A stretch of 64,000 bases of DNA from the NCBI GenBank assembly GCA_016839815.1, contig JAEOTM010000069.1, positions 1 through 64,000 on the forward strand, given 5' to 3'. Within the stretch, counting starts at the first letter, position 1. Each line of letters starts with the position of its first letter. The translations under genes and the position numbers were made by a program. Below the pieces are notes generated by a model. The model saw only the letters and a program-made list of their open reading frames with translations, ran no database searches and was not told the DNA's origin. The stretch is from Candidatus Hodarchaeota archaeon (GTDB taxonomy: Archaea > Asgardarchaeota > Heimdallarchaeia > Hodarchaeales > Hodarchaeaceae). This document shows positions 25,572-53,420 of this stretch, in pieces.

Positions 25572-25982
25572 ATGCCATTTTGGGTCTATATGTTACTTGT
25601 AGGAGATAAATCACGAGGTTATAACCGTAAAATTTATACTGGCTATACTAATCATCTTATCAATCGTCTTACTCAGCATACTGGGTTAAACAGCACTAAA
25701 GGTGCACGAATCACTCGGAAACAACCAATTGAATTAGTGTATTTAGAGAGATTTGCCTCACGGAAACTCGCTCTAAAGCGTGAATGGGATTTTAAACATA
25801 CAAGTCCTTTAAACCAAAAGGTGACGAAAATCTCTCTAATAAAACAATTTCAAGAATCGAATGCCGATATCTTAAGTGATTTGAATGATACTTTTGAGCA
25901 ACATAATCAGTTTCTTGAGTCTATGATATCTTCTCTGAAAAATATTGAAAAAGAGATGAGCTCCAGAGTTCAACCTAAGTGA
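25572..25982 (+). CDS. GIY-YIG nuclease (YhbQ/Slx1-like)
   Basis: VYML...IYTGYT...RLTQH...KGARIT...LVYLE...ALKRE. Confidence 0.9.
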   Translation: MPFWVYMLLVGDKSRGYNRKIYTGYTNHLINRLTQHTGLNSTKGARITRKQPIELVYLERFASRKLALKREWDFKHTSPLNQKVTKISLIKQFQESNADILSDLNDTFEQHNQFLESMISSLKNIEKEMSSRVQPK

Positions 25983-26046
25983 TTTGGTAATTTATTTTGG
26001 AATATATTTTAAGATAGAGATTAAACAGACCCTTTATTGGAAGTGA

Positions 26047-27393
26047 TTGATAACAATGGTTGACCCACTTTTGATTGGAGTATCCTTCTTCTTGTTAATT
26101 GTACTATTTATCGTTATTCGTAGAACAGAACTCATTCCGTATCTTTATATCTATTTTATTGGGAAGAAAGATCTTCCTGTTAACCTTCCAAGTGATTTTG
26201 GTCTAGAGCCAATCTCAATTTCCTTTCCAGTGGGAGAAAATATGCAGAACGCTTGGTTTTTCCCTAGTAAACAGGATAATGACGCAACCATTCTGATGAT
26301 TCCCGATTGGATTACTGAACAATCGTTGGAGAATAGTTTGAAGACATCTGGAGTATTACAATTAATGGGGTTTAACGTTTTACTCCCAATTATACATCAT
26401 ATTGATGAATCAACCCGCCTTCTTCTTAAAAAGAATTTATCCCCACGATATTACACTTCAACCATTGAAAGCGCGTATGAGTACCTTATATCACGGAAAG
26501 ATCTCGATAAACGCAAAATTGCTGTGTACAGTGATTCATTTAGCACATTACTAGTAAGTAGCTTAGTAGGAGATCAGGCCATCCAGGCTGTTGTCCTTGA
26601 AAATGGACCCAGTTCACTCGGAACTTTAATTTCTCATCAATTTCCCTACACAGGATTCGGAGTTAGAGTCATTAGAAGTATACTCCGTCATCTACTAGGC
26701 GTATTTCTGTGGAAAACACGTTGGGATAGAGGTCGTTCTTTATCTATGCTCCATTCCTGCCCCACATTTCTTGTATCAGTCTTCAATCATAGAGATCAAC
26801 CAAATCGGAATATCTTCAAAAATTTCACCTCTTTATATAAACCAAAACAACTCTGGCTCGAAAATGCACTTCTTCCATCAGGGGGGATTCGTGATACATG
26901 GCCAGAGGAATATTTTTCACAGGTAAAGCATTTCTATGACCGATGGATAAACAAAGATCCCGCACCTGAATGGCATTGTGAGATGAAGGTATCAAAGAGT
27001 GGGAAAAAGGAATATACAACTTCACTTACAATTTCAGTTCTTCCTCCTCAGATGGAACAGCTTCCATTAAATATTACTTTGTCTAACCGAAAGAATCAGT
27101 TACATCAAGAACGAGTATGGTTTTTAGGAGCAGAACAGACTTATCAAATTCAAACCCCTTTTCGATCAAACTTTCACTCTCTGTTACCTTATTTTAACAT
27201 AGAAAGAACTGGAAATGAGCAGATTCCCTGGATTAAACTAGAGGCAGAGGAAGCTCTCATACATACGGTTCAAACCATTGTTTCTCTTAATCTATCAGAT
27301 TTGATTGACTATGAAGAAAGATATTTTATGACCAAAGATCAATTAGTAAAGGACATCAAGTCAGAAGAATCCGTTTCTGCTACCCTACCTTAG
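26047..27393 (+). CDS. Membrane-anchored alpha/beta-hydrolase-fold protein, degenerate active site
   Basis: N-terminal TM; PSDFGL, NAWFFP, KIAVYSDSFS (canonical GxSxG eroded), PKQLW; extra C-terminal beta domain. Confidence 0.65.
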   Translation: MITMVDPLLIGVSFFLLIVLFIVIRRTELIPYLYIYFIGKKDLPVNLPSDFGLEPISISFPVGENMQNAWFFPSKQDNDATILMIPDWITEQSLENSLKTSGVLQLMGFNVLLPIIHHIDESTRLLLKKNLSPRYYTSTIESAYEYLISRKDLDKRKIAVYSDSFSTLLVSSLVGDQAIQAVVLENGPSSLGTLISHQFPYTGFGVRVIRSILRHLLGVFLWKTRWDRGRSLSMLHSCPTFLVSVFNHRDQPNRNIFKNFTSLYKPKQLWLENALLPSGGIRDTWPEEYFSQVKHFYDRWINKDPAPEWHCEMKVSKSGKKEYTTSLTISVLPPQMEQLPLNITLSNRKNQLHQERVWFLGAEQTYQIQTPFRSNFHSLLPYFNIERTGNEQIPWIKLEAEEALIHTVQTIVSLNLSDLIDYEERYFMTKDQLVKDIKSEESVSATLP

Positions 27394-27676
27394 CAAATTG
27401 ACAGGATTCACAAAAAGGAGAATTATGAGCAAACAATGAGCAATGAAATCTGATCTTTCTTGAATTTTTTACAGAAAAATAAAGGCATTCAATATTAAAT
27501 TTTTCCTGTTTTACTTTTTCTAGATTGCCAATCTTCCCTTCTTCAAAAAAACCGCACTGATTTGGGCACTTACTAATCCACTCATGATATTTAATACAAA
27601 AAGAAAGGGAATTTCCTGAAGTAGTCAGTAAAGCGATGCACGGCTTGAATATTGAGTTATCTATCTCTTGTCCCAC
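27380..27676 (-). CDS. Cys-rich small protein (paralog of 53106..53420)
   Basis: 8 Cys in the pattern C..C.xY..CPxxC..F.IECxYF..FxCxL..PxCxxC. Confidence 0.7.
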   Translation of the reverse strand: MGQEIDNSIFKPCIALLTTSGNSLSFCIKYHEWISKCPNQCGFFEEGKIGNLEKVKQEKFNIECLYFSVKNSRKIRFHCSLFAHNSPFCESCQFAKVG

Positions 27677-27808
27677 TCATGTCACCGTTCAAAATATAGT
27701 GTAGTCTATTCCATTATAAGCATCTCGATTTTCGTTCAAATTTTGAGTATATATGCTTCATACAGAATCAGTACCAGATGACTCATTTTTCTCTGAGGCT
27801 AAATTCAA

Positions 27809-28264
27809 ATGACAACTATGCTACAGGATCCCCACATACTCATCTATGATAACTTATTTTTCAGATTATCGCTTGGAAAATGCGATATACGCATTTTCAA
27901 GGAATCAGAATGGTTTACCGAGGAATATGTTCTTGTAAGACCTGTTTATCAGAATCGGTTGGTTCTGCTCAAAGATATTCTATCATCTTCTAGTGACAGA
28001 TTAAAGAGATCTATCTCTAAGGAAAACGGAAATTTTATTGAAAAAAGTGGTCAATTTATTCAATTCATTAACTACTCAGACATAACAAATCGAGAATTAA
28101 TTGGATTGGGTTTGCGAATTACTTCGAATTCTAAAATATCTCCACAAATACTTGAAACTTTAATGGAGGATAGAATTCAGAAGATCATGTTTCTTCTCTC
28201 AAGAGGTATGTTAAAATCTCAATATCATCGGATAGATTACTTGGATATTGAAATAATGATATAA
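27809..28264 (+). CDS. Hypothetical protein
   Basis: 151-aa ORF; first gene of an apparent 3-gene operon. Confidence 0.55.
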   Translation: MTTMLQDPHILIYDNLFFRLSLGKCDIRIFKESEWFTEEYVLVRPVYQNRLVLLKDILSSSSDRLKRSISKENGNFIEKSGQFIQFINYSDITNRELIGLGLRITSNSKISPQILETLMEDRIQKIMFLLSRGMLKSQYHRIDYLDIEIMI

Positions 28265-28277
28265 ACAATGATTCACT

Positions 28278-29063
28278 ATGGCTACCATTACTTCAGAACT
28301 ATTAGAACAATACTTGGATTGTCCACGCCATTTTTATTTTAGTAAAATACGTGGGATTAAGCTAGCCGAGAATTCTAGATGGGAAGTTATTGAATGGAAT
28401 CGGAATCGAATAAAGAAAATTACATTTGAGTATTGTTCTTATCTTTCTAAAATTTTAGGACAGGAAATTGGTAAGAAAATTGAAAATCTCGAAAAACTTA
28501 GTAACGTACTTCCTTTAAGTTCCTACTGCGTATTTGCTACTTCATCTCGTACGGAAGCCAATTTCGATCTAATTCCCAAGATTTGTGCATATTTAAATTT
28601 CGTTTTATTCTCTATATGGCAAGAAAGCAAATTAAAGCACAAAAAAAAACGAATCCCAGTTTCTCTCACATTTCTTCCCAAAGCAGACATTCCCCATGAC
28701 CTGATATGTGAAAATCCAACGGCTTTAATTGAATATTCGGATAATAAAACAGCATTAGTACATCAGAATTATACATCTCCGCAGGAAAAAGGGAATGAAC
28801 ATTCTACAGACGTAGTTACTTTATTCTTAGTCAATTTGTTTCACTCTAACTTGACTAGAATCATTTCAATTGATTATCGAACAATGAAAATATCTTTTGA
28901 TAGCATAAGTAAATACAAGTCTCAATTCTTAAGATCTAAGTTGCATAAAAAGGTAAAATATTTCACTTTGCAAGAATTTGAACCTCAAATATCTAATGTG
29001 TGTGATATTTGCGAGTTTAAAATGATATGTGATCATTCGAAGGAAGGAATAAGAGATGGTTGA
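28278..29063 (+). CDS. Cas4/AddB-like PD-(D/E)XK-fold protein with Fe-S staple cysteines
   Basis: N-terminal YLDCPRHFYF and C-terminal CDICEFKMIC; no clear D..(D/E)xK catalytic motif. Confidence 0.7.
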   Translation: MATITSELLEQYLDCPRHFYFSKIRGIKLAENSRWEVIEWNRNRIKKITFEYCSYLSKILGQEIGKKIENLEKLSNVLPLSSYCVFATSSRTEANFDLIPKICAYLNFVLFSIWQESKLKHKKKRIPVSLTFLPKADIPHDLICENPTALIEYSDNKTALVHQNYTSPQEKGNEHSTDVVTLFLVNLFHSNLTRIISIDYRTMKISFDSISKYKSQFLRSKLHKKVKYFTLQEFEPQISNVCDICEFKMICDHSKEGIRDG

Positions 29064-29925
29064 ACTATTGGATCTTTTGGTAGATGCGTTTGGTGATTTC
29101 ATAAATTGGTATGCACTGGAAGCTGTGCAGGGGGAAAATCTAGTAGATTTTTTTGTAAAGCAGATTTCATATTATATCGTACTTCAAATAGTTCTATATT
29201 TTATTCCCTTTTTACGCAGAATATTAATGATTTTTTTTCTTCCCTTCCGCTGGATACATGTCTATTTACATGTCTATACAGCCAAACAGATAATGAAAGA
29301 AATTGAGTCTCGTAAAGAGTCAGGAGAAAAAGAACCAGTTATTGATACAGGTAATCTTCGTGCATCTTTAATCTCAGGAATTGATGTCCCAGATGAGAAT
29401 CCAGGATTATTAATGGGATTCAATCGATTTCATTATGCTCGTAGAGTTGCGTTGGCACCAAATAAACTGGCATTTATAATGTTAATCGGGTATTTGATTG
29501 TGACTCCTCTGATTTTTGCGGATACAGGGGTTCTTTCTTCTCAAGTAGGAGGATTAGTACATTTGTACCTATTTATCGGAATATTTGGAGTTCTTATGCC
29601 AAGTCTAAATGACTGGTATTTTCTGATTCATGCTTTAATGATAAATTTAGAAATTAGACCATTCTGGTTTTACAATGCCATTCTGGTGTATGTTATTTTC
29701 ACATTTGACACTCTCTGGAGAACACAAAATTTCTTCCTTTCTATACTAATTGGAACAGTATGGTTTGTACTCTATATAATTGGTTTATTTGTTGTAGGAT
29801 ATATTGCCCAAGGTGGAACTATCAAAAAACCAGTTTTATATTGGATACCAACCGAAAAACCTATGACACCATTCTCAAAGAAACCAGAAATCGATTTTCT
29901 TTCATTGGAAGACCTTGACCTCTAA
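29056..29925 (+). CDS. Polytopic membrane protein, M50/zincin-like with eroded HExxH
   Basis: Several TM helices; HVYLH, VALAP and PSLND occur in the order seen in M50-like membrane metalloproteases; overlaps the upstream gene by 8 nt. Confidence 0.55.
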   Translation: MVELLDLLVDAFGDFINWYALEAVQGENLVDFFVKQISYYIVLQIVLYFIPFLRRILMIFFLPFRWIHVYLHVYTAKQIMKEIESRKESGEKEPVIDTGNLRASLISGIDVPDENPGLLMGFNRFHYARRVALAPNKLAFIMLIGYLIVTPLIFADTGVLSSQVGGLVHLYLFIGIFGVLMPSLNDWYFLIHALMINLEIRPFWFYNAILVYVIFTFDTLWRTQNFFLSILIGTVWFVLYIIGLFVVGYIAQGGTIKKPVLYWIPTEKPMTPFSKKPEIDFLSLEDLDL

Positions 29926-29939: not shown

Positions 29940-30641
29940 TCAAATCGAGAACAGATTAAAGTCTGTTGATCCAATATAATTATTGAACATATAGAAATCT
30001 AATGAAGATTTGGAATTAGATTTATATAAAACAGATTTTGTGATACAAAAAGGATCTAAAAAAGTATTTTTATGATTTTTTTCCTTTGAACTGGTAGAAA
30101 GGGGATGATGAGTTATAATGATAGGTATTTTTCTTATAGAAGCAATTTTTCGAAGATCTAACATATAAACAAATATATTGCGATTCCATTTCTTTTTAGA
30201 TTCCTTGAAAAGCTCAATAAATTGTAAGGGCGATCCAAATATTGTATCTAAAACTATAAGAGAGAGGTTTGGAGAATCTCCCTCCAGAATTTTCTTACTT
30301 AGAATAATTGCGTCAATAAATGAGGTTGGATTGAAAAATTGGATATTATCCAAAAATTCAGATGTTTTGAGGACTTTTTTAAGAGTCTGGAATCGAATAT
30401 TTCCTGAAAAATTTGAATAAAGAATTTCTGCATCCTGATTGTATGTAAGCAATGAATTTATAATTCGTTGACAGAACCACGACTTTCCAACTCCGGGTTC
30501 ACCAATTGTTAAATGGAGATGTCCTTCATAAACTCCTCCAGTAATGCTATCTATAAAATTAATCCCTGTTGGAATTTTTTGTAAGATTTCAAGCTCTTCA
30601 CTCATAAAAGAGAGGCTTTTAACTAAAAATCTCGTTTTCAT
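29940..30641 (-). CDS. RecA-superfamily ATPase (RadB/Rad51-paralog-like)
   Basis: KIPTGINFIDSITGG, Walker A GEPGVGKS, Walker B LIVLDT, IPIIIT. Confidence 0.8.
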   Translation of the reverse strand: MKTRFLVKSLSFMSEELEILQKIPTGINFIDSITGGVYEGHLHLTIGEPGVGKSWFCQRIINSLLTYNQDAEILYSNFSGNIRFQTLKKVLKTSEFLDNIQFFNPTSFIDAIILSKKILEGDSPNLSLIVLDTIFGSPLQFIELFKESKKKWNRNIFVYMLDLRKIASIRKIPIIITHHPLSTSSKEKNHKNTFLDPFCITKSVLYKSNSKSSLDFYMFNNYIGSTDFNLFSI

Positions 30642-31090
30642 CCTGATTCGACCACAAAATGTGTGGATTCTTCTACTGGAAACAGTTCTCTAGATGTCAA
30701 AACAGTAATTATACATAATTTTGCTAATTTTTTAATATACATCCAGATTTCATTATTATTAGCACAATTAGGAGGATGATGAATAATTACTGACGAAAAA
30801 CCCTTTTTTATTACTTCTGAAAGAATAGTGGGCTTAATTAAATAATTATAATCATCAATTGAGAGGAACTCCATAAAGTAAATATTCTCTAGTGCAGGTC
30901 GTTGATGGGAAAAATTATGTAATAATATTAAGGGGATTACTCTAAAATCGATCCAGAGTACCTTGGGTATAACCCATTCATTGTATTTCTCCTTTAAAAT
31001 GAAGTGAACACATGTTTCATATTCTCCTATTACCACATTAGGCTGAGAGAAAGTTATTGAACATTGAGAACTATTCATTCGATTCTTCAC
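30638..31090 (-). CDS. Hypothetical protein, possibly a minimal inactive RecA-fold paralog
   Basis: KVLWIDF and ALENIYF echo RecA-core strands; no Walker A; 4-nt overlaps with both neighbours. Confidence 0.45.
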   Translation of the reverse strand: MKNRMNSSQCSITFSQPNVVIGEYETCVHFILKEKYNEWVIPKVLWIDFRVIPLILLHNFSHQRPALENIYFMEFLSIDDYNYLIKPTILSEVIKKGFSSVIIHHPPNCANNNEIWMYIKKLAKLCIITVLTSRELFPVEESTHFVVESG

Positions 31091-32151
31091 AATCTCCCTA
31101 GTTCAGACTCTAAAATCTGATCATCTTTTTCAGTAAGTTCCTCCTGGTAGACATAATAATATGGAATCCCAAAGAGTACAAAAATTAAGAGAGGAGTCAT
31201 TATAATTCCTGGGATAGGATGATCTATCAAATCTAGATTATTATTTGAAATTAATTTTTCTTTTAATACTCCATGAACTTGGAGTGTAAATGTTATGTCG
31301 GAATAACCATCATGAGAGTCAATGATTGGAATAATATGAATATCAATATACCAGACGTGATCTTTCAGGTCATCTTGATTTATAGTGGTGTTGATAACAG
31401 CGATATTGTCCTCAATCAGATACTTACTACTCTGCCCTGTTGTAAGGGAGAGGTAATCAAATTTACCTCCTATAATTTCTAACTCAAGATTAGTGGTTAA
31501 TAATTGATTATCTGGAATTTGGACGGGAAGATAGCTTCTCAAGAGTAAACGCTCACCAAAATATGAAATTTGTGAGGATTGAAGAATAAAGTGAAAGTTT
31601 TTTGACGTAATCAATAAGGGTTGCTCAGTAAGGGGTTGTACAAGATTTATAGCATAAAGAGAGGCTGAAAATATTTTAAAATTGTATTCAACTTCACGCC
31701 ACGAAATCAGAGCATCCAAATAAATGGAAATGGAAATTGAGAGGGTTTCTTGATAAGTATAATTTAACGGGATAATCAATGTTTGAGGTCGATCAAATTG
31801 GTAAACCAAACAATTCTTGAGTCCATCTCGTTCCTTACTAGAAAACGAGTGATCAGTACTTAAATCGTTAATCTTGGAAGAAGTCTGAATGAAGTCAATT
31901 GCTTCTCCATAATTTTGTACTGATAAGTTCAGAAATAGTTTGTCCCATTGTTTCGATAACACAACTAATCTCGTAAAGGTGATTTCGGGATTATTCATCA
32001 TGTAAGCAATATTCAAATTATAAGATCTGTCAACTTCTTCTCTTTGCTGGGAAAAAACCAGTGAAGATCCCTCACAAATACTTAGTACACTGTGAATACT
32101 CAAAAAAATACTAAAAATAATACAAATTTGTCTTCTATCACCTAGAAACAT
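31087..32151 (-). CDS. Exported beta-rich protein with C-terminal TM anchor
   Basis: Hydrophobic N-terminal signal; C-terminal IPGIIMTPLLIFVLFGIPYYY followed by an acidic tail. Confidence 0.65.
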   Translation of the reverse strand: MFLGDRRQICIIFSIFLSIHSVLSICEGSSLVFSQQREEVDRSYNLNIAYMMNNPEITFTRLVVLSKQWDKLFLNLSVQNYGEAIDFIQTSSKINDLSTDHSFSSKERDGLKNCLVYQFDRPQTLIIPLNYTYQETLSISISIYLDALISWREVEYNFKIFSASLYAINLVQPLTEQPLLITSKNFHFILQSSQISYFGERLLLRSYLPVQIPDNQLLTTNLELEIIGGKFDYLSLTTGQSSKYLIEDNIAVINTTINQDDLKDHVWYIDIHIIPIIDSHDGYSDITFTLQVHGVLKEKLISNNNLDLIDHPIPGIIMTPLLIFVLFGIPYYYVYQEELTEKDDQILESELGRL

Positions 32152-32153
32152 GC

Positions 32154-32720
32154 TTACTGGCCCCTAAATAATGATAAAAGTACACGGGAGAAGTTTAAGG
32201 AGAAGAAAAATAATCCCATATTTCCCAAGTTTTTATTTGCTCTTGGATCATTAAATGGAATACGTGCTATACGGAATTGTTTTGAATTTTGGGGGAAGGT
32301 CCAATGAAACTTATAATGTTTTACAGGATGGTTACTAAAAACGGATTGTCTTCCTAAAGGTAATCCACCTGGATTCAATGAATCCAGTAGCAAATGTGAT
32401 CCCCAACTTATTGCTATTAGGGAGATTAGGATTTCTAACATCATAATATGTAATATTTGCGCAAGATATACAAAGGGAAGAAAATAAATCATTGTCCAAG
32501 GAGAATGGGATAGTGGATGCCTATAACGTGAAATTAAAACACCTTCATTTTCAAATTCCACCCCGATATTCCTATCAATGATGTTAGGAACCCAACTAAA
32601 TAAGCTGGTAAAAAGAGACACAATCAGCACAACCCCTGAATAAATACTGTCATCAATTACGAACATTCCATATAAATTCGTCAAACCTAAAGAAAATAGG
32701 TAATGTGTCATATCTTTCAT
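32154..32720 (-). CDS. Membrane-bound metal-dependent hydrolase (YdjM/DUF457-like)
   Basis: THYLF, PNIID, RHPLSHS, GSHLLLDSLNPGG. Confidence 0.8.
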   Translation of the reverse strand: MKDMTHYLFSLGLTNLYGMFVIDDSIYSGVVLIVSLFTSLFSWVPNIIDRNIGVEFENEGVLISRYRHPLSHSPWTMIYFLPFVYLAQILHIMMLEILISLIAISWGSHLLLDSLNPGGLPLGRQSVFSNHPVKHYKFHWTFPQNSKQFRIARIPFNDPRANKNLGNMGLFFFSLNFSRVLLSLFRGQ

Positions 32721-32725: not shown

Positions 32726-35700
32726 TCAGTTTTCCTTTCTTCGAAAATATACATTAGCAAGAGTGGCAAAAGCAGCGAATAGACTTATTCCAATTCCAGA
32801 TTCAATTAAGTCATTTAGTCCTATCTGGGAGTGAATTTTTTGTTGAGTTTCTGTTTGAGAACTTTGTGGTGATTGAGTAGTTCCAGTAGTTTGTTCGGTA
32901 GTAAAAGATTGCTCTTCCGAACCATTCACCTGGATATTAGGAAAATATTTCACTGTTTGTTGACCAATATCATCTATTACTGATATCTGGAGTACATATA
33001 CCCCTGATGTCAAAAAGAACTCAAGGATAACGTGAGAATCATTTATTTGTGTGAACGGATATTCTACACCATTAATATACAGAACTGCTTTATCAACAAG
33101 ATAATCATCAGAAACTTCGATTACCAATCGATAAAGTACACCCGAGGTTATATTTTCCAAAAGAAAAAGAGTGGAATCACCGATAAGGGGAGGTGAATCA
33201 GAAGAATTAAAAATTGCGGTATACCGACTAGAATGTCCATAGATATCAAAAACAGACAAATTAAATTCCCAAACATCTGGAATTAACCATGGGGAAGTAA
33301 ATCTCCAAATTTGATAACTCCCCATTGTCGATTCGTAAATTAAGGTTCCATTTACCGAATATTCTTCAGTAGCACCTTGAATGATGAAGGTCGGTATTTC
33401 TTCTGCAATCGATGCATTTGCCTTTTCGATCCGAATCTCTAAACTAAATCCGTTTCGTTCGAAAGATGAATCCATTATGATAATTTGAGGGGCATACCAT
33501 GAGATATTGTATCTTTTATTTAGTGAAGGGTTATTATCCCATGGATACCACATATTCAAACTTACTGTATAATTTTCTGGATCACAAAACACTTGTGTAT
33601 ACCATTGATTTCCATAGATGTTGCTTAGACTATAATCTGCTCCCGCTAAGGTAACTTGGACAAGATCAAGATCAATAGACTGAGAATCTATAGTTGCTCT
33701 TACTTCATACCTATTTGACTCCCAGGATGTAGATAGTGATGTAATCGTAGGTAGTGGTGCAACCCAGAGTTCAAAAAAGATTCGAGTATCATACAGTCCT
33801 TCAGTAGTATTTGCATACAAATAAACTTCCCAAGTACCAGGAGAAGGAAATTGAAAACTAAGACGATAATCCTGAAAGAATGCATCCCATTCTAATATGC
33901 CTACATTACTTCCATTAATATATAACCCGACTGTGTTGAAATTAGGATTTGAGAGAATTTCTGTGTTTACATAGTAATTACCTGCAGCATCTATCTTGGT
34001 GATCTGTGAATTGATTATTAGATTCACGTGTTCAACAACAGAAAAGCAAATTTTCTTTGTATTTACATTCCCTGCTGCATCATACGAATAGATATTCAGT
34101 GAGTAAGTCCCAAATAGCAAATTCAAATTTGATATACTATGTGGAGTATAGGTTTGATTTGTACTATGTATCTCTGAGATACAATAAAGTATTGTTTCAC
34201 CATCTGAATCTATACTCAACGGCACAGCATCGGTATAGCTGTAATTATAGGGAGAAACAATATTTAAATACGGAATAATTGTATCAACGTTGAAAAAACA
34301 CGATTTAATGATAGCATTACCCGCAATGTCATTAACCTGAATGGTAAGGTTATGACTTCCCTCTGATAAGTTAGACAGACTTGTACCTGAACCTCCAACA
34401 GTATGGACACCATCTAGGAACACAAATACCTCTTCTTCGTTAGTTAAGAATGAAAGTAGAACAGAATTCATGTTATAAGACTCATTCCTAGGACTAACTA
34501 TGATTAATGACGGTTCAGTTAGATCAATACTGAAAAATGAAGAAACGAAAGATATTTCACCATAGGAATTTTCCCCATAGGCATTACAGGTATAGAAACC
34601 TTCTGGTAATTCACGAAAAACGGTTTCACTCCATGAAACATTTGTTTGGTCCAAAGGTTCAATATTATACCAATAACTATCAGCATTTCCTTGGAAGGAT
34701 ATCTCTAGGATCGACCCGTATACAGAATTATTCGATGGGGAAAGAATTTCTAGTGCAGAGGGTAGAGATCTAATCATGATGGAATATTGACCACTAATGG
34801 ACGCATTATAATAATCTTCACTGTTTAATGGCACTTTTACTGCAATTGTATAGGTTCCAGGTTGATCAAATAAGATGAGGAAATGAAAAATTCCAGCTCC
34901 ATTTGTGGAATCTATCGCCGTTTCAATACCATTTACAAGTAGGATGGAATCTACTCCTGAAATTGGACCAGATACTTCTCCAAGGACAGTTCCATCAATA
35001 TTGATGGATAAATTGACAAGAGCTTCCGCAGGAATACTGATAGAAATCTGAAGATCTTCAATAACTGTTATTTCATGCGAATATACATGATAGTAAACAT
35101 AAGTCTCATTACTAACAATTAATATTTCCTTAACTCCTGTACTAGTAAATATATACGCATACGAATGTTGTCCAGCCTGAATCCCACCTTTCCAAAGCAA
35201 ATCATTGATCCAAATTTGATAAGATTCTGAACAGTTGACCATGAATTGATAGTAATCATTTGTATTCCCAAATTCAGCCCCAGTAACTTCCATATTCGCA
35301 ACACTGTACATAGTTGCATGATCATATTTCAAATTCGTTTGATTTGAATTTGATGCACGTAAAGTTAACCCTCCTTTATAATAAGGAGTGGACCAATTGT
35401 AATTTCCTATTCCAGAGCCATTTAACGTGAATACTGTTATAAACTCCCAATTCGTGGATCCATCTCGTTGCCAATGCAACCTTATGTCCTCATTTAAACC
35501 GCCTTCAATGGATATTACTGACCAATGATTAGCAAGAATGGCACTCTCAATGAGAAGTGAGAGAGGAGGACGAATTGTGATGGTAAAGATTCCTGGATTT
35601 GGAGTTGCGAGATAATATCTTCCCAAATTCCCTTGATAACTGCACTGCAGAATATGAATTCCTATCTGAGCTGATTCAGCTACAATGAAATCAAAATAAA

Positions 35701-37540: not shown

Positions 37541-37603
37541 TCTAGTAACTCTCGATGATTATCCCTTCCTGTGTTTTTATATTCAAAATGAATATTTATA
37601 AGT

Positions 37604-37647
37604 AGTATATAAAAAAACAATTTTTTCACGATTTCAGATATTTAAGG
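37604..37647. promoter_or_regulatory. Bidirectional promoter carrying shared island motifs
   Basis: AGTATATAAAAAAA (37604-37617), TTCACGATT (37625-37633) and ATTTCAGATATTTAAGG (37631-37647), about 40 nt before radA. Confidence 0.7.
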
Positions 37648-44841: not shown

Positions 44842-44886
44842 CTTAAATATCTAAAAACCCCTCCTCCGAATTTTTCAAGTATAAAA
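44842..44886. promoter_or_regulatory. Divergent promoters with island motif variants
   Basis: Minus strand TTTTTAGATATTTAAG (44842-44857); plus strand TTTTCAAGTATAAAA (44872-44886). Confidence 0.55.
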
Positions 44887-44905: not shown

Positions 44906-45418
44906 GTGAAGAAGATGTTATCAGAAAAACAACTAACTGAACGTTTAGAAATCTATCTGAGAGATCATTTACAATTCCAAACATATCTTGAACTACAGAT
45001 TAATAGTAATGAAAATTTTAAGATCTCCGAAATAATAAACCAAGAGTCCTTTCGAATTGACTTAGCAGGCATCAGTCAAATAGATGGGTCGATACACTTT
45101 GTAGAAGCGGAAACCCAGATACATATCAACCATCCCACAATATTCCGTCATTTTTGTGACTATTGCTATTTATTATGTCCTGACGAACAATTTACCCTGC
45201 TTAATTCTACGACTGTAGATGAACAACTCTCTTGGGCTCGAGAAGAGGGAATTGGAATTATATCCATCTCGAAAGAAGGACGAGTTAGAAATCGTATCCA
45301 TGCAGTCCAACAGCCGTTAGACTCTGAAATTCGGAAAGTAGTTATACAGACGATGAATAATCGGTATAATATTCCATTTTCTACCATCCCATTATGGGAC
45401 CGTTCCAGGGAGTCATAA
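44906..45418 (+). CDS. PD-(D/E)XK endonuclease-like protein (MmcB-like)
   Basis: RIDLAGI..IHFVEAET..FCDYCYLLCP..GIGII matches the MmcB-type layout. Confidence 0.6.
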   Translation: MKKMLSEKQLTERLEIYLRDHLQFQTYLELQINSNENFKISEIINQESFRIDLAGISQIDGSIHFVEAETQIHINHPTIFRHFCDYCYLLCPDEQFTLLNSTTVDEQLSWAREEGIGIISISKEGRVRNRIHAVQQPLDSEIRKVVIQTMNNRYNIPFSTIPLWDRSRES

Positions 45419-45461: not shown

Positions 45462-45968
45462 TTGTTAGTGTGTTCACCAACAGAGAGAAAAAAAGCAGAA
45501 CTTTTCAACCAAATAGATACACTTTTCCAAGAGAACCGATTCGAGCAAGCAATAACCAATTTGCATTATTTATTACGAACTGATCCATCTCGAGAGCAAG
45601 ATATCCGTTTCAAGTTAGCACAAATCTTTTTCAAAAGAAATGAAATAGATCAGACCTTAAATATACTATCTCCTCTGCTACCAAGTTCGAAACGTAATAT
45701 CACAGAGCTAGCAATCCAATCCTTTATTTCTCTAGATGAAAAGGAAAATTCCCTCCGAATACTTGTAAATTCACCATTACATGACTACGAAAAAAGAAAG
45801 CTGTATCAAAGGTACTTTTCAGACTCCCCAGAGGGACAAGACAATTTTTCGATTTGGCCCCAGTTGGACATTTATTGTCCTGAGTGTGGAGATTATCTGT
45901 TCTTTCACCAAGAGAAAATAGTTTGTTTAAAATGTCATCAAAAAGAAATTTCTAAGTTTCTTGCTTAG
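45462..45968 (+). CDS. TPR + C-terminal zinc-ribbon protein
   Basis: TPR-like helices, then CPECG...CLKC. Confidence 0.65.
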   Translation: MLVCSPTERKKAELFNQIDTLFQENRFEQAITNLHYLLRTDPSREQDIRFKLAQIFFKRNEIDQTLNILSPLLPSSKRNITELAIQSFISLDEKENSLRILVNSPLHDYEKRKLYQRYFSDSPEGQDNFSIWPQLDIYCPECGDYLFFHQEKIVCLKCHQKEISKFLA

Positions 45969-47193: not shown

Positions 47194-47210
47194 CCTTAAA
47201 TATCTGAAAT
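47194..47210 (-). promoter_or_regulatory. Island promoter motif, exact copy of the radA 17-mer
   Basis: ccttaaatatctgaaat is the reverse complement of ATTTCAGATATTTAAGG, and points at the 47121 start. Confidence 0.75.
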
Positions 47211-47234: not shown

Positions 47235-49991
47235 TCAAGCAATAAATATCCTACAGTCATTATAATCCGTACCGAGGGGGATTTCCTTATTTTGTAAGAT
47301 AAAAGCAAGAATTTGCTGCGCTCCCGCTTTATCCAACAATGTGTTATTCTTACTGCAGCGGGGTAAAAAGCAACATTTTGGACAGCCATCTTGGCAGTCA
47401 CATTCTAGAATTTCACTGGCTCGTAAAAATAGATCAGATAAGTGACTCATTAGCATCTCACAAATTCCATAACCCGTGGATTGATCAAATAAAAGGATGT
47501 ATCCCTGAGGTAGTAATGTTAATCCACCAATTTCGTGAATCTGTCCTCCAATAAACGGTAAACTTGCATGTATAAGGACATGAACGAGAGTATGTAAAGA
47601 ATTATTAAACCGATTTTGATCTAATTGGACATTCAAGGAAGATCTGGGGATTTGAAACAATAAACCTCTGGATTGAGACGAATAATATTGTGGTTCCCGT
47701 AATTTCTTGGTTTCTGTTCCAGATGGTGTTTGAAGTGTATAACCAACAACTGATTGTAGAATTTTCGCTGTAACGAGACCAAATTCCAAACCATAAACTG
47801 AAACTGTGGACTTATGAATTTCCAGAATTTGGGGTTTCATTCTAGTAAGGGGGAATGTCTGACCCCAAACACTTTTGGGTTTTATCAGTTCCGCCCACCC
47901 CCGGAATCCATTAAACCGATAACTAATTACCCGGTATTTTGCACCTCCAGCTAAATAATAAGCCCCTGGATATAACTCATACATTGCAAGTGGCATACTT
48001 CGTTTGCCTATTTGTTTTCCACCACGAATCCTGATTATAATCTCATGATTCGTTCCTCTAATTGAATACTTTCGAACTTTTTCAATCCCTTGTTCTGTAG
48101 GAACGAAAATATCATTCTCAAATCTCTGAAGATAGTTCTTTTTGTCTAATTCCTTGATTGCTGATACATACTCTGGAAATTCATTTATCCCTAATGGATG
48201 GTCGAGAGCTGCGGTAAGAAGTTGATGATCGACAACATTTGGATTGGTTGGGTCGAAAAATATATCCTCTACTTCTTGGTAATAACGTTCGGGGTTATTA
48301 TAATAATAATGACAAATCGGATCATCTGCATTAAGATGAATGATTGCTACAGCATCTTGTCCTTTTCTTCCAGCTCTTCCAATCCTTTGGATAGCACGAT
48401 TCGCAGAAATTGGAGGGGTAACTACGATTTCTAAAGCTCCAATATCGATTCCCAATTCCAAGGTTGGAGTAGCTATTAAAAGATCGATATCTCCTTCTCT
48501 GAATTGTGTCTCCACTTCTTCACGAACTTTTTTATCTAATCCCGCTCTATGTATCCCAATCTTCTCCGAAGTCCCCCGTAAACGTTGAAAAAGATATTCA
48601 GCACTACGATGAGAGTCTTGAAACGCCAAGATTTTTCCATATGGTTTAATTGAATTAAGTAAACTTGTAATACCATCAAAGGTTGACATGCCATCAAAAG
48701 GAGCGATCATTAAAAAATGCAATCGTCCTCTTCGGCCATGTTGACATTCAACTACTGTAATTGAGCGATTCAACAGGCGACTGGTGAAATTCTGTGGATT
48801 AGCAACTGTTGCAGAAGAAGCGATAAATTGGATCCTATTATCAACAATACGCTCAAGGCGTCGAAGAATAAAATACATATTACTCCCAAATGTTCCAGAA
48901 AAGGTATGAACTTCATCCAATATGACGATTTTCAAATTAGATACTAAATTTTGAAAAAATCCTGAGTTTTTCCCAATTCCAAGATGATAATGAAGAATAT
49001 CTGGGTTTGTAATCAGAATTTCTGGAGGATTAGCAAAGATCTTTTTTCGTCGATATTGAGAGGTATCTCCATCAAAGACTTCTACTGATAATTTTAAGAG
49101 CGAAGCAAGTTCGGTTATTTTTCTTAACTGATCCTTAGCTAAAGCCTTCTGGGGATAAATAATTAATAATTGTACTCCATATCCCACGAAATCTTTAATC
49201 TTTATCAGCGCAGGAAGAAGAAATCCTTCTGTTTTCCCATTACCTGTCGGGGCAACAATGCATACATCTTGATTCGCTAGAATTTTTTTGTAGGCTTCTT
49301 CCTGAAACTTATAAAGCCGTTTAATCCCCTTTGAATTCAGATACTTTATAATCTCATAGTTATTAATGAATTGTATTTTCTTTCCATATTCACCACTTTG
49401 TTTATCAAAAAAACGATAGTCTACTATCTGATGCTGACCGAAATGAACTAGCTGTTTAATGACCACTGGAAGAGCTTCTTCCTCAATCTTAAAATGTGCA
49501 TAAAATTCATTTAAGGAGAAAATACTCTTTGGTGCATTGCTTTGTATCTGCTTCGCTTTCTGTAAACCCAACGGATGATCACTTGGTAGAGTTTTAAGTT
49601 TTCCTGTGCTTGCTAAGCGTGTTTTTACCTTAGGATTAAGTGAAACACCTCCTCCTTTCAATGAATAGAATTTCTGTAAACAGAATTCCGCTTTTTCATT
49701 TTCTTTTAATTTGAAGTAAAGAGAAGATAATGCCTTCCAGGTATCACGATGCTGACTATCTTGTTGTAAAATCCTTCCAAATACAAGTTTAGCCTCATTA
49801 TAACATTTAATCTTGATAAAACGACTAGCAATTGTAGACAACAATGAAATTGAAGGTTTGGGAGAAGAAGAGTCAATGATATTCTTAAATGAAACTACCA
49901 TAGCATCAAGATCTCTTGTCAAAGCATAATCTTCAAGAGCAGACTCATACTGTTTCCAGAGGAGCTTTTCCTTTTCGTGAGCTAGTGTCAT
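47235..49991 (-). CDS. MrfA/Hrq1-like DEAH helicase with DUF1998-type Zn domain and N-terminal TPR
   Basis: LYKFQ, APTGNGKT, TNPDILH, LDEVH, SATVAN, HRAGL, TPTLELGIDIG, QRIGRAGR, CDCQDGCPKC. Confidence 0.92.
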   Translation of the reverse strand: MTLAHEKEKLLWKQYESALEDYALTRDLDAMVVSFKNIIDSSSPKPSISLLSTIASRFIKIKCYNEAKLVFGRILQQDSQHRDTWKALSSLYFKLKENEKAEFCLQKFYSLKGGGVSLNPKVKTRLASTGKLKTLPSDHPLGLQKAKQIQSNAPKSIFSLNEFYAHFKIEEEALPVVIKQLVHFGQHQIVDYRFFDKQSGEYGKKIQFINNYEIIKYLNSKGIKRLYKFQEEAYKKILANQDVCIVAPTGNGKTEGFLLPALIKIKDFVGYGVQLLIIYPQKALAKDQLRKITELASLLKLSVEVFDGDTSQYRRKKIFANPPEILITNPDILHYHLGIGKNSGFFQNLVSNLKIVILDEVHTFSGTFGSNMYFILRRLERIVDNRIQFIASSATVANPQNFTSRLLNRSITVVECQHGRRGRLHFLMIAPFDGMSTFDGITSLLNSIKPYGKILAFQDSHRSAEYLFQRLRGTSEKIGIHRAGLDKKVREEVETQFREGDIDLLIATPTLELGIDIGALEIVVTPPISANRAIQRIGRAGRKGQDAVAIIHLNADDPICHYYYNNPERYYQEVEDIFFDPTNPNVVDHQLLTAALDHPLGINEFPEYVSAIKELDKKNYLQRFENDIFVPTEQGIEKVRKYSIRGTNHEIIIRIRGGKQIGKRSMPLAMYELYPGAYYLAGGAKYRVISYRFNGFRGWAELIKPKSVWGQTFPLTRMKPQILEIHKSTVSVYGLEFGLVTAKILQSVVGYTLQTPSGTETKKLREPQYYSSQSRGLLFQIPRSSLNVQLDQNRFNNSLHTLVHVLIHASLPFIGGQIHEIGGLTLLPQGYILLFDQSTGYGICEMLMSHLSDLFLRASEILECDCQDGCPKCCFLPRCSKNNTLLDKAGAQQILAFILQNKEIPLGTDYNDCRIFIA

Positions 49992-50081: not shown

Positions 50082-50137
50082 AGTATATAAAAAAATTCAC
50101 GATTAGGCAATATTAGACCCATTTTCGAATATTTAAG
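50082..50137. promoter_or_regulatory. Bidirectional promoter carrying shared island motifs
   Basis: AGTATATAAAAAAA (50082-50095), TTCACGATT (50096-50104), TTTTCGAATATTTAAG (50122-50137). Confidence 0.65.
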
Positions 50138-50170
50138 CCATTCTCGGTATCAGTAGTAGAGGTTTGGAAA

Positions 50171-51607
50171 ATGGTTACTGAGAATATAACGACCCACCTA
50201 CTTTCGGGGGAAAGACAATCAGAGATGTTTCAAAATCCGCAATCATTAGTTAATGCTACTAATGAGGAATTATTCAGTCTCGAAGCGGATTTTGTACATC
50301 GAGTACAATTAGCAGGAGCTCGAAAACGGTTCGAGTACTTTATTCCAAGAATTAAAGCTTTAAAAAAGCTGGCAGACGAACAGAATATCTCAGAGATTAC
50401 GAGTCTTAATGATCTAGCTCCTATTCTCTTTCAACACACCGTCTACAAAAGCTATCCATTAGCCTTCATTGAGAAGAAGAAGTTTGATAAGCTTACAGCT
50501 TGGTTAGATAAGCTTACTACACACGATTTGTCGACAATTGTGACGAATGAGTGTAATTCTATCGACTCTTGGTTAGAAGCAATCGAAAAGCAGTCCAATA
50601 TTCGAATTGTCCACAGTACGGGTACGAGCGGGAAGTTAAGTTTTCTTCCAAGAAGCGAGAGTGAAATGGACAATTTTAAGCAAGCGTTCTATTTGTTTAT
50701 TGAGGTCCTCACAGGTGTGAATCCCCATACTACACATATGCCTGTTTTCTTCCCAAGTTTTGCTGATGGGAGACAATTAGCCCAAAGGGTACTAAGTCGA
50801 TTTGGCCCAATGTTAGCAGGATCTGAAGGGGAATATCATACTGCAATTCCTGGTTATCTTTCCGCGGACTTCATGTCTCTTGCAGGTAGATTACAAGCAG
50901 CAAAAGCTAAAGGAGAATTAGGAAAACTCCAAATGCTTAAAGCATTGAGCTATAACAAAGGTGAGCTCATCCGATTAAAACGGAATCGTCCGAAATATAT
51001 GGCAGCTTTCTTTGATAATATGATTAGTAATTATCGTGGTCGTCAAGTTTTCATGCTTGGAACGCTCACATCAATGATTGAAGCCGCATTAGAAGGAGAA
51101 AAACAAGGATTGAGTCATGTTTTCGCCCCTAATTCCGCAATAGTAACTGGAGGGGGACTTAAAGGACAAACTGTTCCTGATGACTGGTATGAAAGAATCT
51201 GTACTTTCTATGGTGTCAAAAGTATCAGAGATGGCTATGGAATGACGGAAACAACTGGTTACATGCCTTCTTGTGAACAGAATCACTACCATATCTATCC
51301 ACATTTCATTCCGTTTGTTTTCGACTTGGTTGATGGTCAAGTATTGCCCCGAAAAGGGATTCAAACTGGACGGTTTGGTTTCTATGACCTGCTCACTGAA
51401 AGTTATTGGGGTGGGTTCCTAACAGGTGATGAAGTAACAATTCACTGGGATGAGCAATGCACATGTGGACGCACTGGTCCTTGGCTTGAAAAGAGTATCC
51501 ATCGTATTAGTGAGAAAAATGATGGGGACGACAAAATTAGCTGTGCAGGGAGTCAAGAAGCATATGACTCGTTTATCGACTATTTATTGGATATAGAGGA
51601 AGAGTAA
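50171..51607 (+). CDS. LuxE-like acyl-protein synthetase (ANL adenylating family)
   Basis: STGTSGKLSF, TGGGLKG, YGMTE, GRFGFYD, GGFLTGD, CTCGR, C-terminal KISCAG. Confidence 0.75.
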   Translation: MVTENITTHLLSGERQSEMFQNPQSLVNATNEELFSLEADFVHRVQLAGARKRFEYFIPRIKALKKLADEQNISEITSLNDLAPILFQHTVYKSYPLAFIEKKKFDKLTAWLDKLTTHDLSTIVTNECNSIDSWLEAIEKQSNIRIVHSTGTSGKLSFLPRSESEMDNFKQAFYLFIEVLTGVNPHTTHMPVFFPSFADGRQLAQRVLSRFGPMLAGSEGEYHTAIPGYLSADFMSLAGRLQAAKAKGELGKLQMLKALSYNKGELIRLKRNRPKYMAAFFDNMISNYRGRQVFMLGTLTSMIEAALEGEKQGLSHVFAPNSAIVTGGGLKGQTVPDDWYERICTFYGVKSIRDGYGMTETTGYMPSCEQNHYHIYPHFIPFVFDLVDGQVLPRKGIQTGRFGFYDLLTESYWGGFLTGDEVTIHWDEQCTCGRTGPWLEKSIHRISEKNDGDDKISCAGSQEAYDSFIDYLLDIEEE

Positions 51608-51637
51608 CTTCTTCCATTTCTTTTTGAGGACACTAAC

Positions 51638-53086
51638 ATGCAAACAATTCTTACAAAACCGCTTGAATCTGACATCTTTGAAATTCCAATTATCCTACGA
51701 GGAAAACTAATTCACGATTATTCTGACACTTTTGGTGGAAGGAACGGAGCAAAATTCATTACTCCAAGTGCACGGAAGTATGTAAATCAAATTGCCCTGT
51801 CTGACCCATCAAAAATGAAGGATCTATATGATCTATCCATAGAAGAGATTATCTTGTTTCTTCGCGATTTAGGGCAACGGTTAGTCTTACATGAAAATGA
51901 ACACCTTCAAGCTGCCTACAAACTCGCGTGTGAAGCCTCAGGTTTAACGCCAGAAGTTTTAAATACAACATATCGAACTTTACCGATGTTATTTCTTCCA
52001 TCCAATGTCCGAGAGATGCTTGAAAAGAGGAAAATTCGCAAATATCTGGAATCCTGGGTACCCACCACGATGGAAGATGGACGAACAATATCAATTAGAG
52101 CTTTTGGCTCTCGTACAGTTCATATTATTGCAGGTAACGTACCAACCGTTTCTGCCGCTTCACTGATTAGAGGTTGTAGTACACGTTGTGATACTATTTT
52201 CAAATTACCATCCAACGACCCACTCACAGCAACAGCATTAGTTCAAACAATGATCGATATGGAACCAAATCATCCTCTTACTAAGCATACAAGTGTCCTT
52301 TATTGGAGAGGAGGCGATACAGAATTTGAGGAGCGATTTTACCATCCCGATAATATCGATAAAATTATCGCTTGGGGAGGTTTCAACTCAATCAAACACA
52401 TTAGTCAGTATTTACAGGCTGGACTCGATCTTATCACCTTCGATCCTAAAATCAGTATCTCTATTATTGGAAACGAAGCGTTTCAGAATTTCCAAACTCT
52501 TCAGTTAGCAGCTCAGCGAGCAGCTATTGATGTTGGATCGTTTAATCAAGAGGCCTGTTTAAATTCTCGCATAATGTATGTACAATCTGGAACATCTGAT
52601 GAGGGAATTCAACGTCTGAATTCATTTGGAAAAATGTTGTACTCAGCTCTTGTTAATCTTCCTTCACATGTGTCAACCTCACCTAAAATCTTTGATAAAA
52701 CGCTCAAAGACGATATTGATGGAATACGTCTAGAAGAGGATTTTTATCGAGTATACGGGGGTAAAAATAACGAAGGTGCAGTTATTGTTTCTCAATTTGA
52801 TGAACCAGTAGACTTTTCTCACAGGTTATGCAGTAGAGTCGTTAATCTTGTTCCTATAGATAACGTTGATACTGCAATTCAGTCAGTAAACTCCTATACC
52901 CAAACGGTTGGTATTTTCCCTGAATCATTAAAACTCCAACTACGAAATACCCTACCCCTCTATGGAGTTCAACGAGTAGTTTCCTTAGGATTTGCGGCCA
53001 CAGCTAGTCTAGCAACACCTCAAGATGCGATTGAACCTGTTAGAAGGATGTGCAAATGGATCACTGATGAAAAATCCGTAACGTAA
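51638..53086 (+). CDS. LuxC-like acyl-CoA reductase
   Basis: HIIAGNVP, KLPSNDP, YWRGGD, IAWGG, DPKISIS, NQEACLNSR (catalytic Cys), TQTVG, GVQRVV. Confidence 0.88.
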   Translation: MQTILTKPLESDIFEIPIILRGKLIHDYSDTFGGRNGAKFITPSARKYVNQIALSDPSKMKDLYDLSIEEIILFLRDLGQRLVLHENEHLQAAYKLACEASGLTPEVLNTTYRTLPMLFLPSNVREMLEKRKIRKYLESWVPTTMEDGRTISIRAFGSRTVHIIAGNVPTVSAASLIRGCSTRCDTIFKLPSNDPLTATALVQTMIDMEPNHPLTKHTSVLYWRGGDTEFEERFYHPDNIDKIIAWGGFNSIKHISQYLQAGLDLITFDPKISISIIGNEAFQNFQTLQLAAQRAAIDVGSFNQEACLNSRIMYVQSGTSDEGIQRLNSFGKMLYSALVNLPSHVSTSPKIFDKTLKDDIDGIRLEEDFYRVYGGKNNEGAVIVSQFDEPVDFSHRLCSRVVNLVPIDNVDTAIQSVNSYTQTVGIFPESLKLQLRNTLPLYGVQRVVSLGFAATASLATPQDAIEPVRRMCKWITDEKSVT

Positions 53087-53105
53087 TAAAGTTGGAGGGA
53101 TTCAT

Positions 53106-53420
53106 GTGGATGCCTGTCAACATCAAGTTATAGATCAATCTATAGAAACAACTCTATTCCTATGTGTAGTTTATAAAGACTATTTTCAATCTTGCCCGTC
53201 TAAATGTCCTTATTACAGATCAGGTTCTCCTCTAACGTTTGCTTATCTTTATAGTAAAAATTTTGATTTTGAGTGTACATACTTTCAGAGTTTAGTGCAG
53301 TGTACAGCACACGATAGCCAGTCATTCATTTGTGAACTAACGAAGAAGCCACCTGATTGCCCTAATTGCCCATTAAAACTAGTTTCTAATTCAGGTGTCA
53401 ATTCGGGAGTTAGGTCCTAA
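53106..53420 (+). CDS. Cys-rich small protein (paralog of 27380..27676)
   Basis: GGAGG RBS upstream; same Cys spacing as 27380..27676. Confidence 0.7.
   Translation: MDACQHQVIDQSIETTLFLCVVYKDYFQSCPSKCPYYRSGSPLTFAYLYSKNFDFECTYFQSLVQCTAHDSQSFICELTKKPPDCPNCPLKLVSNSGVNSGVRS

Follow-up and report, generated by a model that had tools for sequence, protein, structure and literature searches.

Here we describe a cluster of recombination, membrane and surface genes at positions 25,572 to 53,420 of a 64,000-nucleotide stretch of archaeal DNA (contig JAEOTM010000069.1 of assembly GCA_016839815.1; hereafter, the window), which is one contig of a 4.24 Mb, 89.5%-complete genome of the Hodarchaeales (Asgard). 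An earlier note, written from the sequence, had suspected a probable Asgard host, which the Hodarchaeota/Hodarchaeales labels on homologs of the cluster's 289-amino-acid (aa) membrane protein confirm, and had proposed a contact, DNA-transfer and recombination module analogous to that of Sulfolobales. Our analysis retains from this proposal a conserved, linked host system with a VirB4-derived core; that core has a dead ATPase, and the analysis identified no homolog of CedA/VirB6 or CedA1/VirB2. The genes of the cluster are as follows (TM, transmembrane segment):

27809–28264, forward: 151-aa protein without known family, first gene behind a motif-bearing promoter
28278–29063, forward: Cas4/AddB-fold pseudo-nuclease, iron–sulfur (Fe-S) cysteines kept, catalytic residues lost
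29056–29925, forward: multi-pass membrane protein of 289 aa, HxxxH without the catalytic Glu, candidate pore protein
29940–30641, reverse: RadB-like RecA-fold paralog with Walker A (HHalign 96% to the RadA family)
30638–31090, reverse: 150-aa protein, possibly a degenerate RecA-fold paralog
31087–32151, reverse: 354-aa predicted outer-face protein with an N-terminal signal-like segment and a C-terminal TM anchor
32154–32720, reverse: YdjM/DUF1286-like membrane protein with conserved His/Asp motifs
32726–37540, reverse: 1604-aa Ig-like surface protein (Big_13, E 2e-10), C-terminal TM, candidate contact adhesin, divergent from radA
37687–38709, forward: RadA-family paralog (Rad51 profile, E 6e-71)
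38749–41337, forward: pseudo-VirB4 of 862 aa, predicted core scaffold, with the second half of a VirB4 N-terminal domain, an ATPase-fold core, a winged helix and a helical tail
41349–43091, forward: XPD-family Fe-S helicase, motor motifs intact, candidate single-stranded DNA motor
43105–44523, reverse: pseudo-Hef helicase-fold protein without ATPase motifs
44557–44784, reverse: 75-aa Cys-rich protein, co-transcribed with pseudo-Hef
44906–45418, forward: putative PD-(D/E)XK nuclease of 170 aa, single copy, Glu in place of Lys, MmcB-like by motif only
45462–45968, forward: TPR and Zn-ribbon protein of 168 aa
45994–47121, reverse: TM-hairpin protein of 375 aa, first half of the split VirB4 N-terminal domain, likely membrane anchor of pseudo-VirB4
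47235–49991, reverse: MrfA/Hrq1-family helicase with MZB zinc domain, motor motifs intact

The cluster has host-like GC content (0.32–0.40 vs 0.32–0.41 in the rest of the window), and no tRNA was found in the region. The several membrane proteins and the 1604-aa Ig-like protein named in the earlier note were confirmed, the latter with a single C-terminal TM. In line with the note, Pfam gave no match to an integrase, relaxase or transposase among the open reading frames (ORFs) scanned.

A predicted split VirB4 with a dead ATPase

The 862-aa protein had no Pfam match. Its predicted model (predicted local distance difference test score, pLDDT, 78.5) matched HerA, VirB4 and TrwB structures in Foldseek, with E about 1e-10 for HerA/VirB4, and in a fold ranking VirB4 (4AG5) came first (Z 27.2), tied with DndH-C (Z 26.5). 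The N-terminal domain of the model is alpha/beta and not the HAS barrel of HerA, whose matches start near residue 190, and a winged helix follows the core at the C-terminus. The HerA/VirB4-like fold proposed earlier was therefore upheld, but its ATPase motifs are lost: the P-loop is shortened and lacks the Lys, and Walker B is gone, in all Hodarchaeales rows, in remote homologs and, in the proportions given next, in Thorarchaeota and Lokiarchaeia-type proteins. GK[ST] was absent from 24 Hodarchaeales rows, from the remote homologs (one stray match lies outside the P-loop), from 10/10 Thorarchaeota proteins and from 99/100 Lokiarchaeia-type proteins. Because its homologs have neither the Walker A Lys nor Walker B, pseudo-VirB4 is not a motor like CedB, and the suggestion of a CedB-type transport motor fails. 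The ratio of nonsynonymous to synonymous substitution rates (dN/dS) of the gene is 0.10–0.13.

The missing part of the VirB4 N-terminal domain appears to lie in the TM-hairpin protein. Its soluble domain aligns weakly with TrwK residues 16–205 (Z 5.7), the 862-aa protein aligns from TrwK residue 217 onward, and in a relative (G003) the TM-hairpin gene is fused to a pseudo-VirB4 paralog. Complex modelling of the membrane proteins with the HerA-like protein, a check put forward in the earlier note, gave a score of 0.78 for the TM-hairpin and pseudo-VirB4 pair and 0.02 for the best control; the score mark was reached by 58/80 solved pairs and 2/110 mismatched pairs. Across runs, contact agreement was at least 84% and partner pLDDT at least 78, with predicted strand pairing between the two N-terminal domains. 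This score speaks to architecture more than to binding, since two parts of one split gene may score well simply because they resemble solved VirB4. A fold search with the TM-hairpin protein alone returned nothing above Z 6.5, and HHalign linked it neither to the N-terminus of the 862-aa protein nor to the Thorarchaeota TM proteins. Taken together, the fold match, the TrwK alignment ranges, the G003 fusion and the predicted complex identify the two proteins, at the level of structural models, as a split, membrane-anchored, ATP-dead VirB4.

Linkage is kept across Asgard classes

Most of the block persists within the genus, though rearranged in places, and so do its tmk and MMPL flanks. Synteny at this level is weak evidence because background linkage is high: in a control with random segments, gene pairs 8–20 kb apart were linked in 40% (G009), 85% (G011) and 9% (G010) of cases, and within-genus synteny was dropped as proof after this control. 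Across the order, the pseudo-VirB4 family was present in 22 of 23 other genomes, mostly in single copy and with conserved flanks. In a second family of the order (f2), pseudo-VirB4, XPD and a TM-hairpin gene stand in an unbroken series, to which G023 adds the putative nuclease and an Ig-like gene. At ten remote loci with 20–24% identity, radA lies directly upstream of pseudo-VirB4 in seven, six of these with XPD downstream, and one further remote locus holds a nuclease, pseudo-VirB4 and a helicase together.

A first profile confined the family to Hodarchaeales, a result overturned by a wider profile including remote homologs, which placed members in other Heimdallarchaeia (about 1050 aa). Thorarchaeota have a version of about 780 aa with the TM hairpin fused, and the Lokiarchaeia family is about 1270 aa long with four TM; HHalign support outside the order was 98% and 97%. 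A metagenome scan with the Thorarchaeota protein gave no matches. The putative nuclease is single-copy and lies at most 7 kb from pseudo-VirB4 in 25 of the 27 other Heimdallarchaeia genomes having both, a count over kin and not over independent genomes. The RadA paralog is 4–21 kb from pseudo-VirB4 in G158, G153, G024, G384 and G113; in G170 and G116 the distance is 50 kb or the two genes are on different contigs. Thorarchaeota show a codirectional series of a radA paralog, XPD, the TM-hairpin gene, pseudo-VirB4, a Ski2/Hel308-type helicase and a RadB-like gene, and in a complete Lokiarchaeia genome pseudo-VirB4 is part of an operon of membrane proteins, with a Ski2/Hel308-type helicase gene transcribed divergently from it. 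The synteny search across Asgard archaea that the earlier note had called for thus found linkage conserved in family f2, the remote loci and Thorarchaeota, and looser in other Heimdallarchaeia and Lokiarchaeia. The linkage of radA, pseudo-VirB4 and XPD is kept far beyond background and across classes.

The Lokiarchaeia operon (CP070831) is led by the gene for a 666-aa helix-hairpin-helix (HhH) protein with a C-terminal TM hairpin (L287:6404-8404), a candidate membrane-anchored DNA-binding protein.

A rare promoter motif marks the cluster genes

Upstream regions in the cluster have a motif, TTTYNRRTATWWAA, in common, in agreement with the earlier observation that several promoters are alike. 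It occurs at the following positions:

27741–27754, forward, one mismatch: upstream of the operon of the 151-aa, pseudo-Cas4 and 289-aa genes
37575–37588, reverse: upstream of the Ig-like operon
37632–37645, forward: upstream of radA
44843–44856, reverse: upstream of the Cys-rich gene and pseudo-Hef
44873–44886, forward: upstream of the putative nuclease
47196–47209, reverse: upstream of the TM-hairpin gene
50123–50136, forward: upstream of luxE, the best motif score in the genome

We trained a motif matrix on distant relatives alone and scored 2538 upstream regions of the host genome. Only 16 of them reached at least 13 bits, which rules out a general TATA promoter, and 9 of the 16 belong to the cluster or to a second, paralogous module described below; the cluster genes among them are luxE, radA, the Ig-like, TM-hairpin and 151-aa genes and the nuclease. 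At least 14 bits were reached by 11 upstream regions, compared with 1 in shuffled sequence. Relocated cluster genes retain the motif in G009 and G010, as does luxE, and among the sites fetched from these two genomes the motif-led genes common to the genomes were cluster genes only. The plain 14-mer was not enriched genome-wide over its reversed control, and so the signal lies in its position at these promoters. A general repair regulon was also rejected: the housekeeping radA, xpd and hef promoters score low, and since the motif is absent at housekeeping repair genes a general damage regulon is not supported. No orc1 or tfb gene was among those with top-scoring promoters. These results show that the cluster genes in Hodarchaeales are under one rare, private promoter motif. 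The earlier suggestion of a host system is supported: the cluster is retained vertically, with linkage far above background and a private motif.

The Sulfolobus DNA damage response element ANTTTC, with a consensus around TTTCRGWD, is bound by Orc1-2 (PMC6061795). The 5′ half of the cluster motif (ATTTY, then RR) is similar to it and lies at a similar distance from start codons; the likeness covers 6–8 bases only and may be chance, and we regard it as a lead. Two further genes of the host score highly with the matrix. One, on contig C40 (C40:1042-4023), encodes a 993-aa superfamily 2 (SF2) helicase with a C-terminal metallophosphoesterase-like domain and has the second-best motif score genome-wide; the other is an actin gene (C20:36137-37288) with a 13.5-bit motif 94 bases before the called start, which may also be chance.

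The recombination genes are dedicated paralogs

The RadA call of the earlier note holds as to a recombinase gene and not as to a housekeeping one, for this is one of four RadA-like genes, and two of the other three score higher. Separate XPD, Hrq1 and Hef genes also lie elsewhere in the genome (the XPD gene on contig C18), so the RadA, XPD and MrfA of the cluster are extra paralogs beside the housekeeping copies. The linked RadA keeps the HhH domain, Walker A and B, the catalytic Glu and the L1 and L2 loops. In the FxxA polymerisation motif, the Phe is replaced in 17/17 linked copies aligned and retained in the two top-scoring housekeeping copies. Both helicases, XPD and MrfA/Hrq1, were correctly named from the sequence, and within the genus the MrfA/Hrq1 gene mostly adjoins the TM-hairpin gene. 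Of two suggested RecA-fold paralogs, that at 29940–30641 stands, and for that at 30638–31090 HHalign gave p 0.045 over 97 columns and no PDB match was found.

Several further proteins are conserved dead relatives of enzymes. Pseudo-Hef lacks Walker A and DEAH in all orthologs compared, as its proposed name implied (dN/dS 0.07–0.14, two informative pairs). The suggested Cas4/AddB-like nuclease has the fold and the Fe-S cysteines but not the catalysis: PF12705 matches 12/13 members of its family, Cas4 structure 4R5Q matches at E 0.006 and the four-Cys Fe-S set is present, while most orthologs carry Ser where the D is expected and Gln-Thr where ExK is expected. The 289-aa protein, M50B/DUF3267-like by a weak lead (score 0.82), has an M50-like HExxH minus the Glu (dN/dS 0.04–0.12). 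Across informative genome pairs, dN/dS of the dead-enzyme genes is 0.04–0.3; this purifying selection indicates that the Cas4-like, Hef-like and M50-like proteins are maintained and not decaying. In the putative nuclease at 44906–45418, the acidic residues that form a PD-(D/E)XK-like pattern are invariant, so the earlier comparison with MmcB survives as a resemblance of motif, with no Pfam or PDB match.

Surface, lux and flanking genes

The Ig-like gene adjoins radA in most genus genomes and is linked in family f2 too. No family match was found for the 354-aa protein. Cell fusion of the fusexin type (PMC9259645) was considered and set aside, as the surface proteins had no fusexin-like Pfam match in a search by profile, not by fold. 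The right part of the cluster carries a gene pair that the earlier note did not list, although it lies inside the range claimed there, and the left end is a flank of uncertain membership:

50171–53086, forward: luxE and luxC, acyl-protein synthetase and acyl-CoA reductase by Pfam, behind the cluster promoter motif
25572–27676, no single strand assigned: flank with GIY-YIG, hydrolase-fold and 98-aa Cys-rich genes, syntenic

The luxE–luxC pair comes without luciferase genes, which suggests that the programme involves a fatty-aldehyde or acyl product. The GIY-YIG nuclease at 25572–25982 is intact, as noted earlier (PF01541, E 2e-11). Neither it nor the 98-aa gene has the cluster motif upstream, and its membership is uncertain because it lies in a conserved flank without the motif. 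Between them, 26047–27393 encodes a TM-anchored alpha/beta-hydrolase-fold protein whose nucleophile elbow is degenerate and not conserved across orthologs, probably a dead enzyme. Paralogous Cys-rich proteins of 98 aa (27380–27676) and 104 aa (53106–53420) bracket the ends of the cluster; copies occur in relatives too, once beside a relocated pseudo-VirB4 (G011). Insertions of surface or TPR genes break up the cluster in G011, G014 and G017. A 605-aa TPR protein (23720–25537) is found here and in G002 and is missing at that position in most relatives. Farther away, two successive ORFs (139 and 199 aa) at 10513–11741 resemble a single flavoprotein gene interrupted by a frameshift or a stop.

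A second, paralogous membrane module

Five genes of the cluster, those for the 289-aa, YdjM-like, 354-aa, TM-hairpin and pseudo-VirB4 proteins, have paralogs in a second module, found on contig C128 of the same genome and in six other genus genomes (7/22 in all, patchily). It occupies different sites in the genus:

L063:7468-16389; L059:8160-18451; L060; L061; L064; L058; L129: second-module loci

Copy numbers of the five rise together, and this co-duplication marks them as a unit; the 289-aa gene is both co-duplicated and co-relocated with pseudo-VirB4. The second module could be a protein export system with polymorphic cargo. Its AAA+ ATPase gene is of unfoldase type, with a helical N-terminal part that looks MIT-like by eye, and in G020 a 457-aa tubulin/FtsZ-family gene stands directly behind the module (L063:16744-18117).

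A proposed route for DNA import and its rivals

We consider the chances to be about even that the cluster is a host-encoded, domesticated derivative of the inner-membrane part of a type IV secretion system (T4SS) that takes up DNA, whether from other cells or from the medium, and passes it on to a dedicated set of recombination proteins. The DNA transfer that we infer for the cluster could proceed as follows. Pseudo-VirB4 would serve as a ring-shaped scaffold tethered to the membrane; a pore would be made or gated by the 289-aa and YdjM-like membrane proteins, and cell contact would fall to the Ig-like and 354-aa surface proteins. With the ATPase dead, the pulling force on DNA would come from the intact SF2 helicases, much as the SF2 protein ComFA drives DNA uptake in Gram-positive competence. 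On the inside, the RadA paralog, with RadB-like and dead-enzyme partners, would load on the incoming strand and recombine it, the whole gene set being switched on together by one condition. Ced and Ted offer the precedent of a domesticated T4SS importing DNA for repair (PMC9905601, PMC11823120).

A number of observations weigh against DNA import. Unlike the VirB4-type motor of Ced, pseudo-VirB4 has lost its ATPase motifs in all homologs compared. Profiles for VirB6/TrbL (PF04610) and ComEC found no match in the 89.5%-complete genome, where homology to CedA would need a profile–profile search, and no small two-TM ORF of at least 70 aa that could be a two-helix pilin lies in the cluster. We do not class the cluster as Ced because the test for an intact ATPase failed and neither a pore nor a pilin was identified. 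Nor need the candidate pore proteins be universal, as the 289-aa and YdjM-like profiles found no match in five genomes outside the order. In about half of the genus genomes the gene for pseudo-VirB4 has been relocated and no longer lies with radA and XPD. The second module has an intact AAA+ ATPase but neither repair genes nor an Ig-like gene, and variable large proteins (741–1443 aa, acidic N-termini, no Pfam match) are often encoded behind it. The place of luxE and luxC in the regulon is not explained by import, and the direction of transfer cannot be read from sequence.

Some of these points would suit a membrane-tethered platform for recombination or repair in which no DNA crosses the membrane. 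There, a ring of dead VirB4, together with its winged helix, would hold chromosomes and a special RadA filament at the membrane, for pairing of genome copies or after cell fusion. The motor is dead in all homologs compared, the core is followed by a winged helix, the polymerisation motif of the RadA paralog is altered, and the part shared Asgard-wide is the scaffold with the recombination enzymes, the pore candidates having gone unfound in the five genomes outside the order. We nevertheless hold such a platform to be rather unlikely, given a large surface protein and an outer-face anchored protein in the same regulon, additional TM proteins kept at the locus in every lineage examined, and a VirB4 ancestry that implies a translocation complex. 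Unlikely to a greater degree is contact-dependent protein export or envelope remodelling, in which the regulon, serving stress or differentiation, would also hold repair genes with no physical link between the machinery and the DNA enzymes. The pairing of the same five genes with an AAA+ ATPase in the second module keeps this rival alive, as do its variable acidic proteins and the motif at luxE/luxC; the pairing with another motor also supports the helicases as the motor in the cluster. Against export stand the adjacency of radA, pseudo-VirB4 and XPD, which survives at about 20% identity and across classes, the fact that the repair genes are dedicated paralogs, and the patchy, derived look of the second module.

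An anti-virus defence system built from a HerA-fold scaffold, helicases and a nuclease, or the remnant of an integrated conjugative element, strikes us as quite improbable. HerA-fold proteins, dead or active, and DUF1998 helicases are known in defence systems, DndH-C ties with VirB4 as top fold match, and PADLOC matched MrfA and XPD with generic helicase models; these were 2 of 10 proteins, and the eight non-helicase proteins had no match. In the order, moreover, the family is near-universal, mostly single-copy and vertically syntenic, and a mobile relic sits badly with host-like GC and the lack of integrase or relaxase among the ORFs scanned. An integrated element was rejected on the same Pfam scan, in which no coupling protein appeared either, and on a presence that is not patchy. 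That the cluster is an ordinary conserved chromosomal neighbourhood of unrelated genes is already largely refuted and hardly credible: the high genus background (40% in G009, 85% in G011) and the conserved tmk and MMPL flanks would allow for it, but not the linkage in new orders in other families and classes, the gene fusion, the co-duplication and the motif confined to these genes.

Implications for gene exchange in Asgard archaea

How Asgard archaea exchange DNA is not known. Somewhat doubtful, in our estimate, is a wider form of the import proposal, namely that the cluster represents an ancient, Asgard-wide, host-controlled gene-exchange machine, in which a surface adhesin would make contact, an ATP-dead VirB4 would give passage, XPD and MrfA/Hel308 would supply force and the RadA paralog would carry out recombination, RadB-like proteins and dead enzymes acting as its mediators, with the whole set induced as a single programme. 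If true, it would mean a regulated parasexual process in the lineage that gave rise to eukaryotes. If the import proposal itself holds, the cluster would be one more case in which archaea have independently domesticated type IV secretion, here with another source of power. By analogy, the set of recombinase, mediator paralogs, helicases and dead-enzyme partners may recall the layout of eukaryotic recombination complexes. The literature searched held no description of such a system (most subscription papers lay outside the search), and recent work on the origin of meiosis traced RadA phylogeny only (PMC12722695). The cluster offers a function hypothesis for one extra Asgard RadA paralog, together with a defined gene set and promoter motif. 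Since the homolog family occurs in Lokiarchaeia, some members of which are in culture, tests of induction, localisation and marker exchange are feasible.

Comparison with known systems

The VirB3–VirB4 part of conjugative T4SSs (R388 TrwK, 7O42; T. pseudethanolicus VirB4, 4AG5) has the same fold and the same order of a TM hairpin, two N-terminal alpha/beta subdomains and a RecA-like core with a helical insert. The cluster differs in its dead P-loop, in an added C-terminal winged helix and in vertical inheritance, and no relaxase, coupling protein, VirB6 or VirB8 was found in it. The archaeal end-resection module of HerA, NurA, Mre11 and Rad50 likewise places a HerA-superfamily fold beside repair enzymes. 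The cluster, in contrast, has a membrane anchor and a dead ATPase and lacks the HAS barrel, NurA, Mre11 and Rad50; ordinary HerA-family genes are present elsewhere in the host genome.

Ced, of Sulfolobales and Desulfurococcales, and Ted, of Thermoproteales (PMC9905601, PMC11823120), are like the cluster chromosomal and T4SS-derived, with a VirB4-fold protein, and have helicases and nucleases nearby, co-regulation via a short promoter element and a surface contact component. In CedB and CedD of Sulfolobales the VirB4 N-terminal domain is reported to be split over two proteins (bioRxiv 10.1101/2024.09.27.615246), a split paralleled by pseudo-VirB4 and the TM-hairpin protein, both pairs being membrane-linked. 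The cluster departs from Ced and Ted in a VirB4 core without ATPase motifs, in a partner without an ATPase domain, and in the absence of type IV pilus genes and of an identified CedA/VirB6 or CedA1/VirB2 homolog. Its locus also includes a dedicated RadA paralog, XPD and MrfA/Hel308.

A further comparison is with Gram-positive competence (ComEA/ComEC/ComFA with RecA loading). The host genome has no ComEC match, pseudopilus genes are lacking and the scaffold of the cluster is VirB4-derived, whereas the proposed logic would be the same: an SF2 motor and recombinase loading at a pore, under one regulon.

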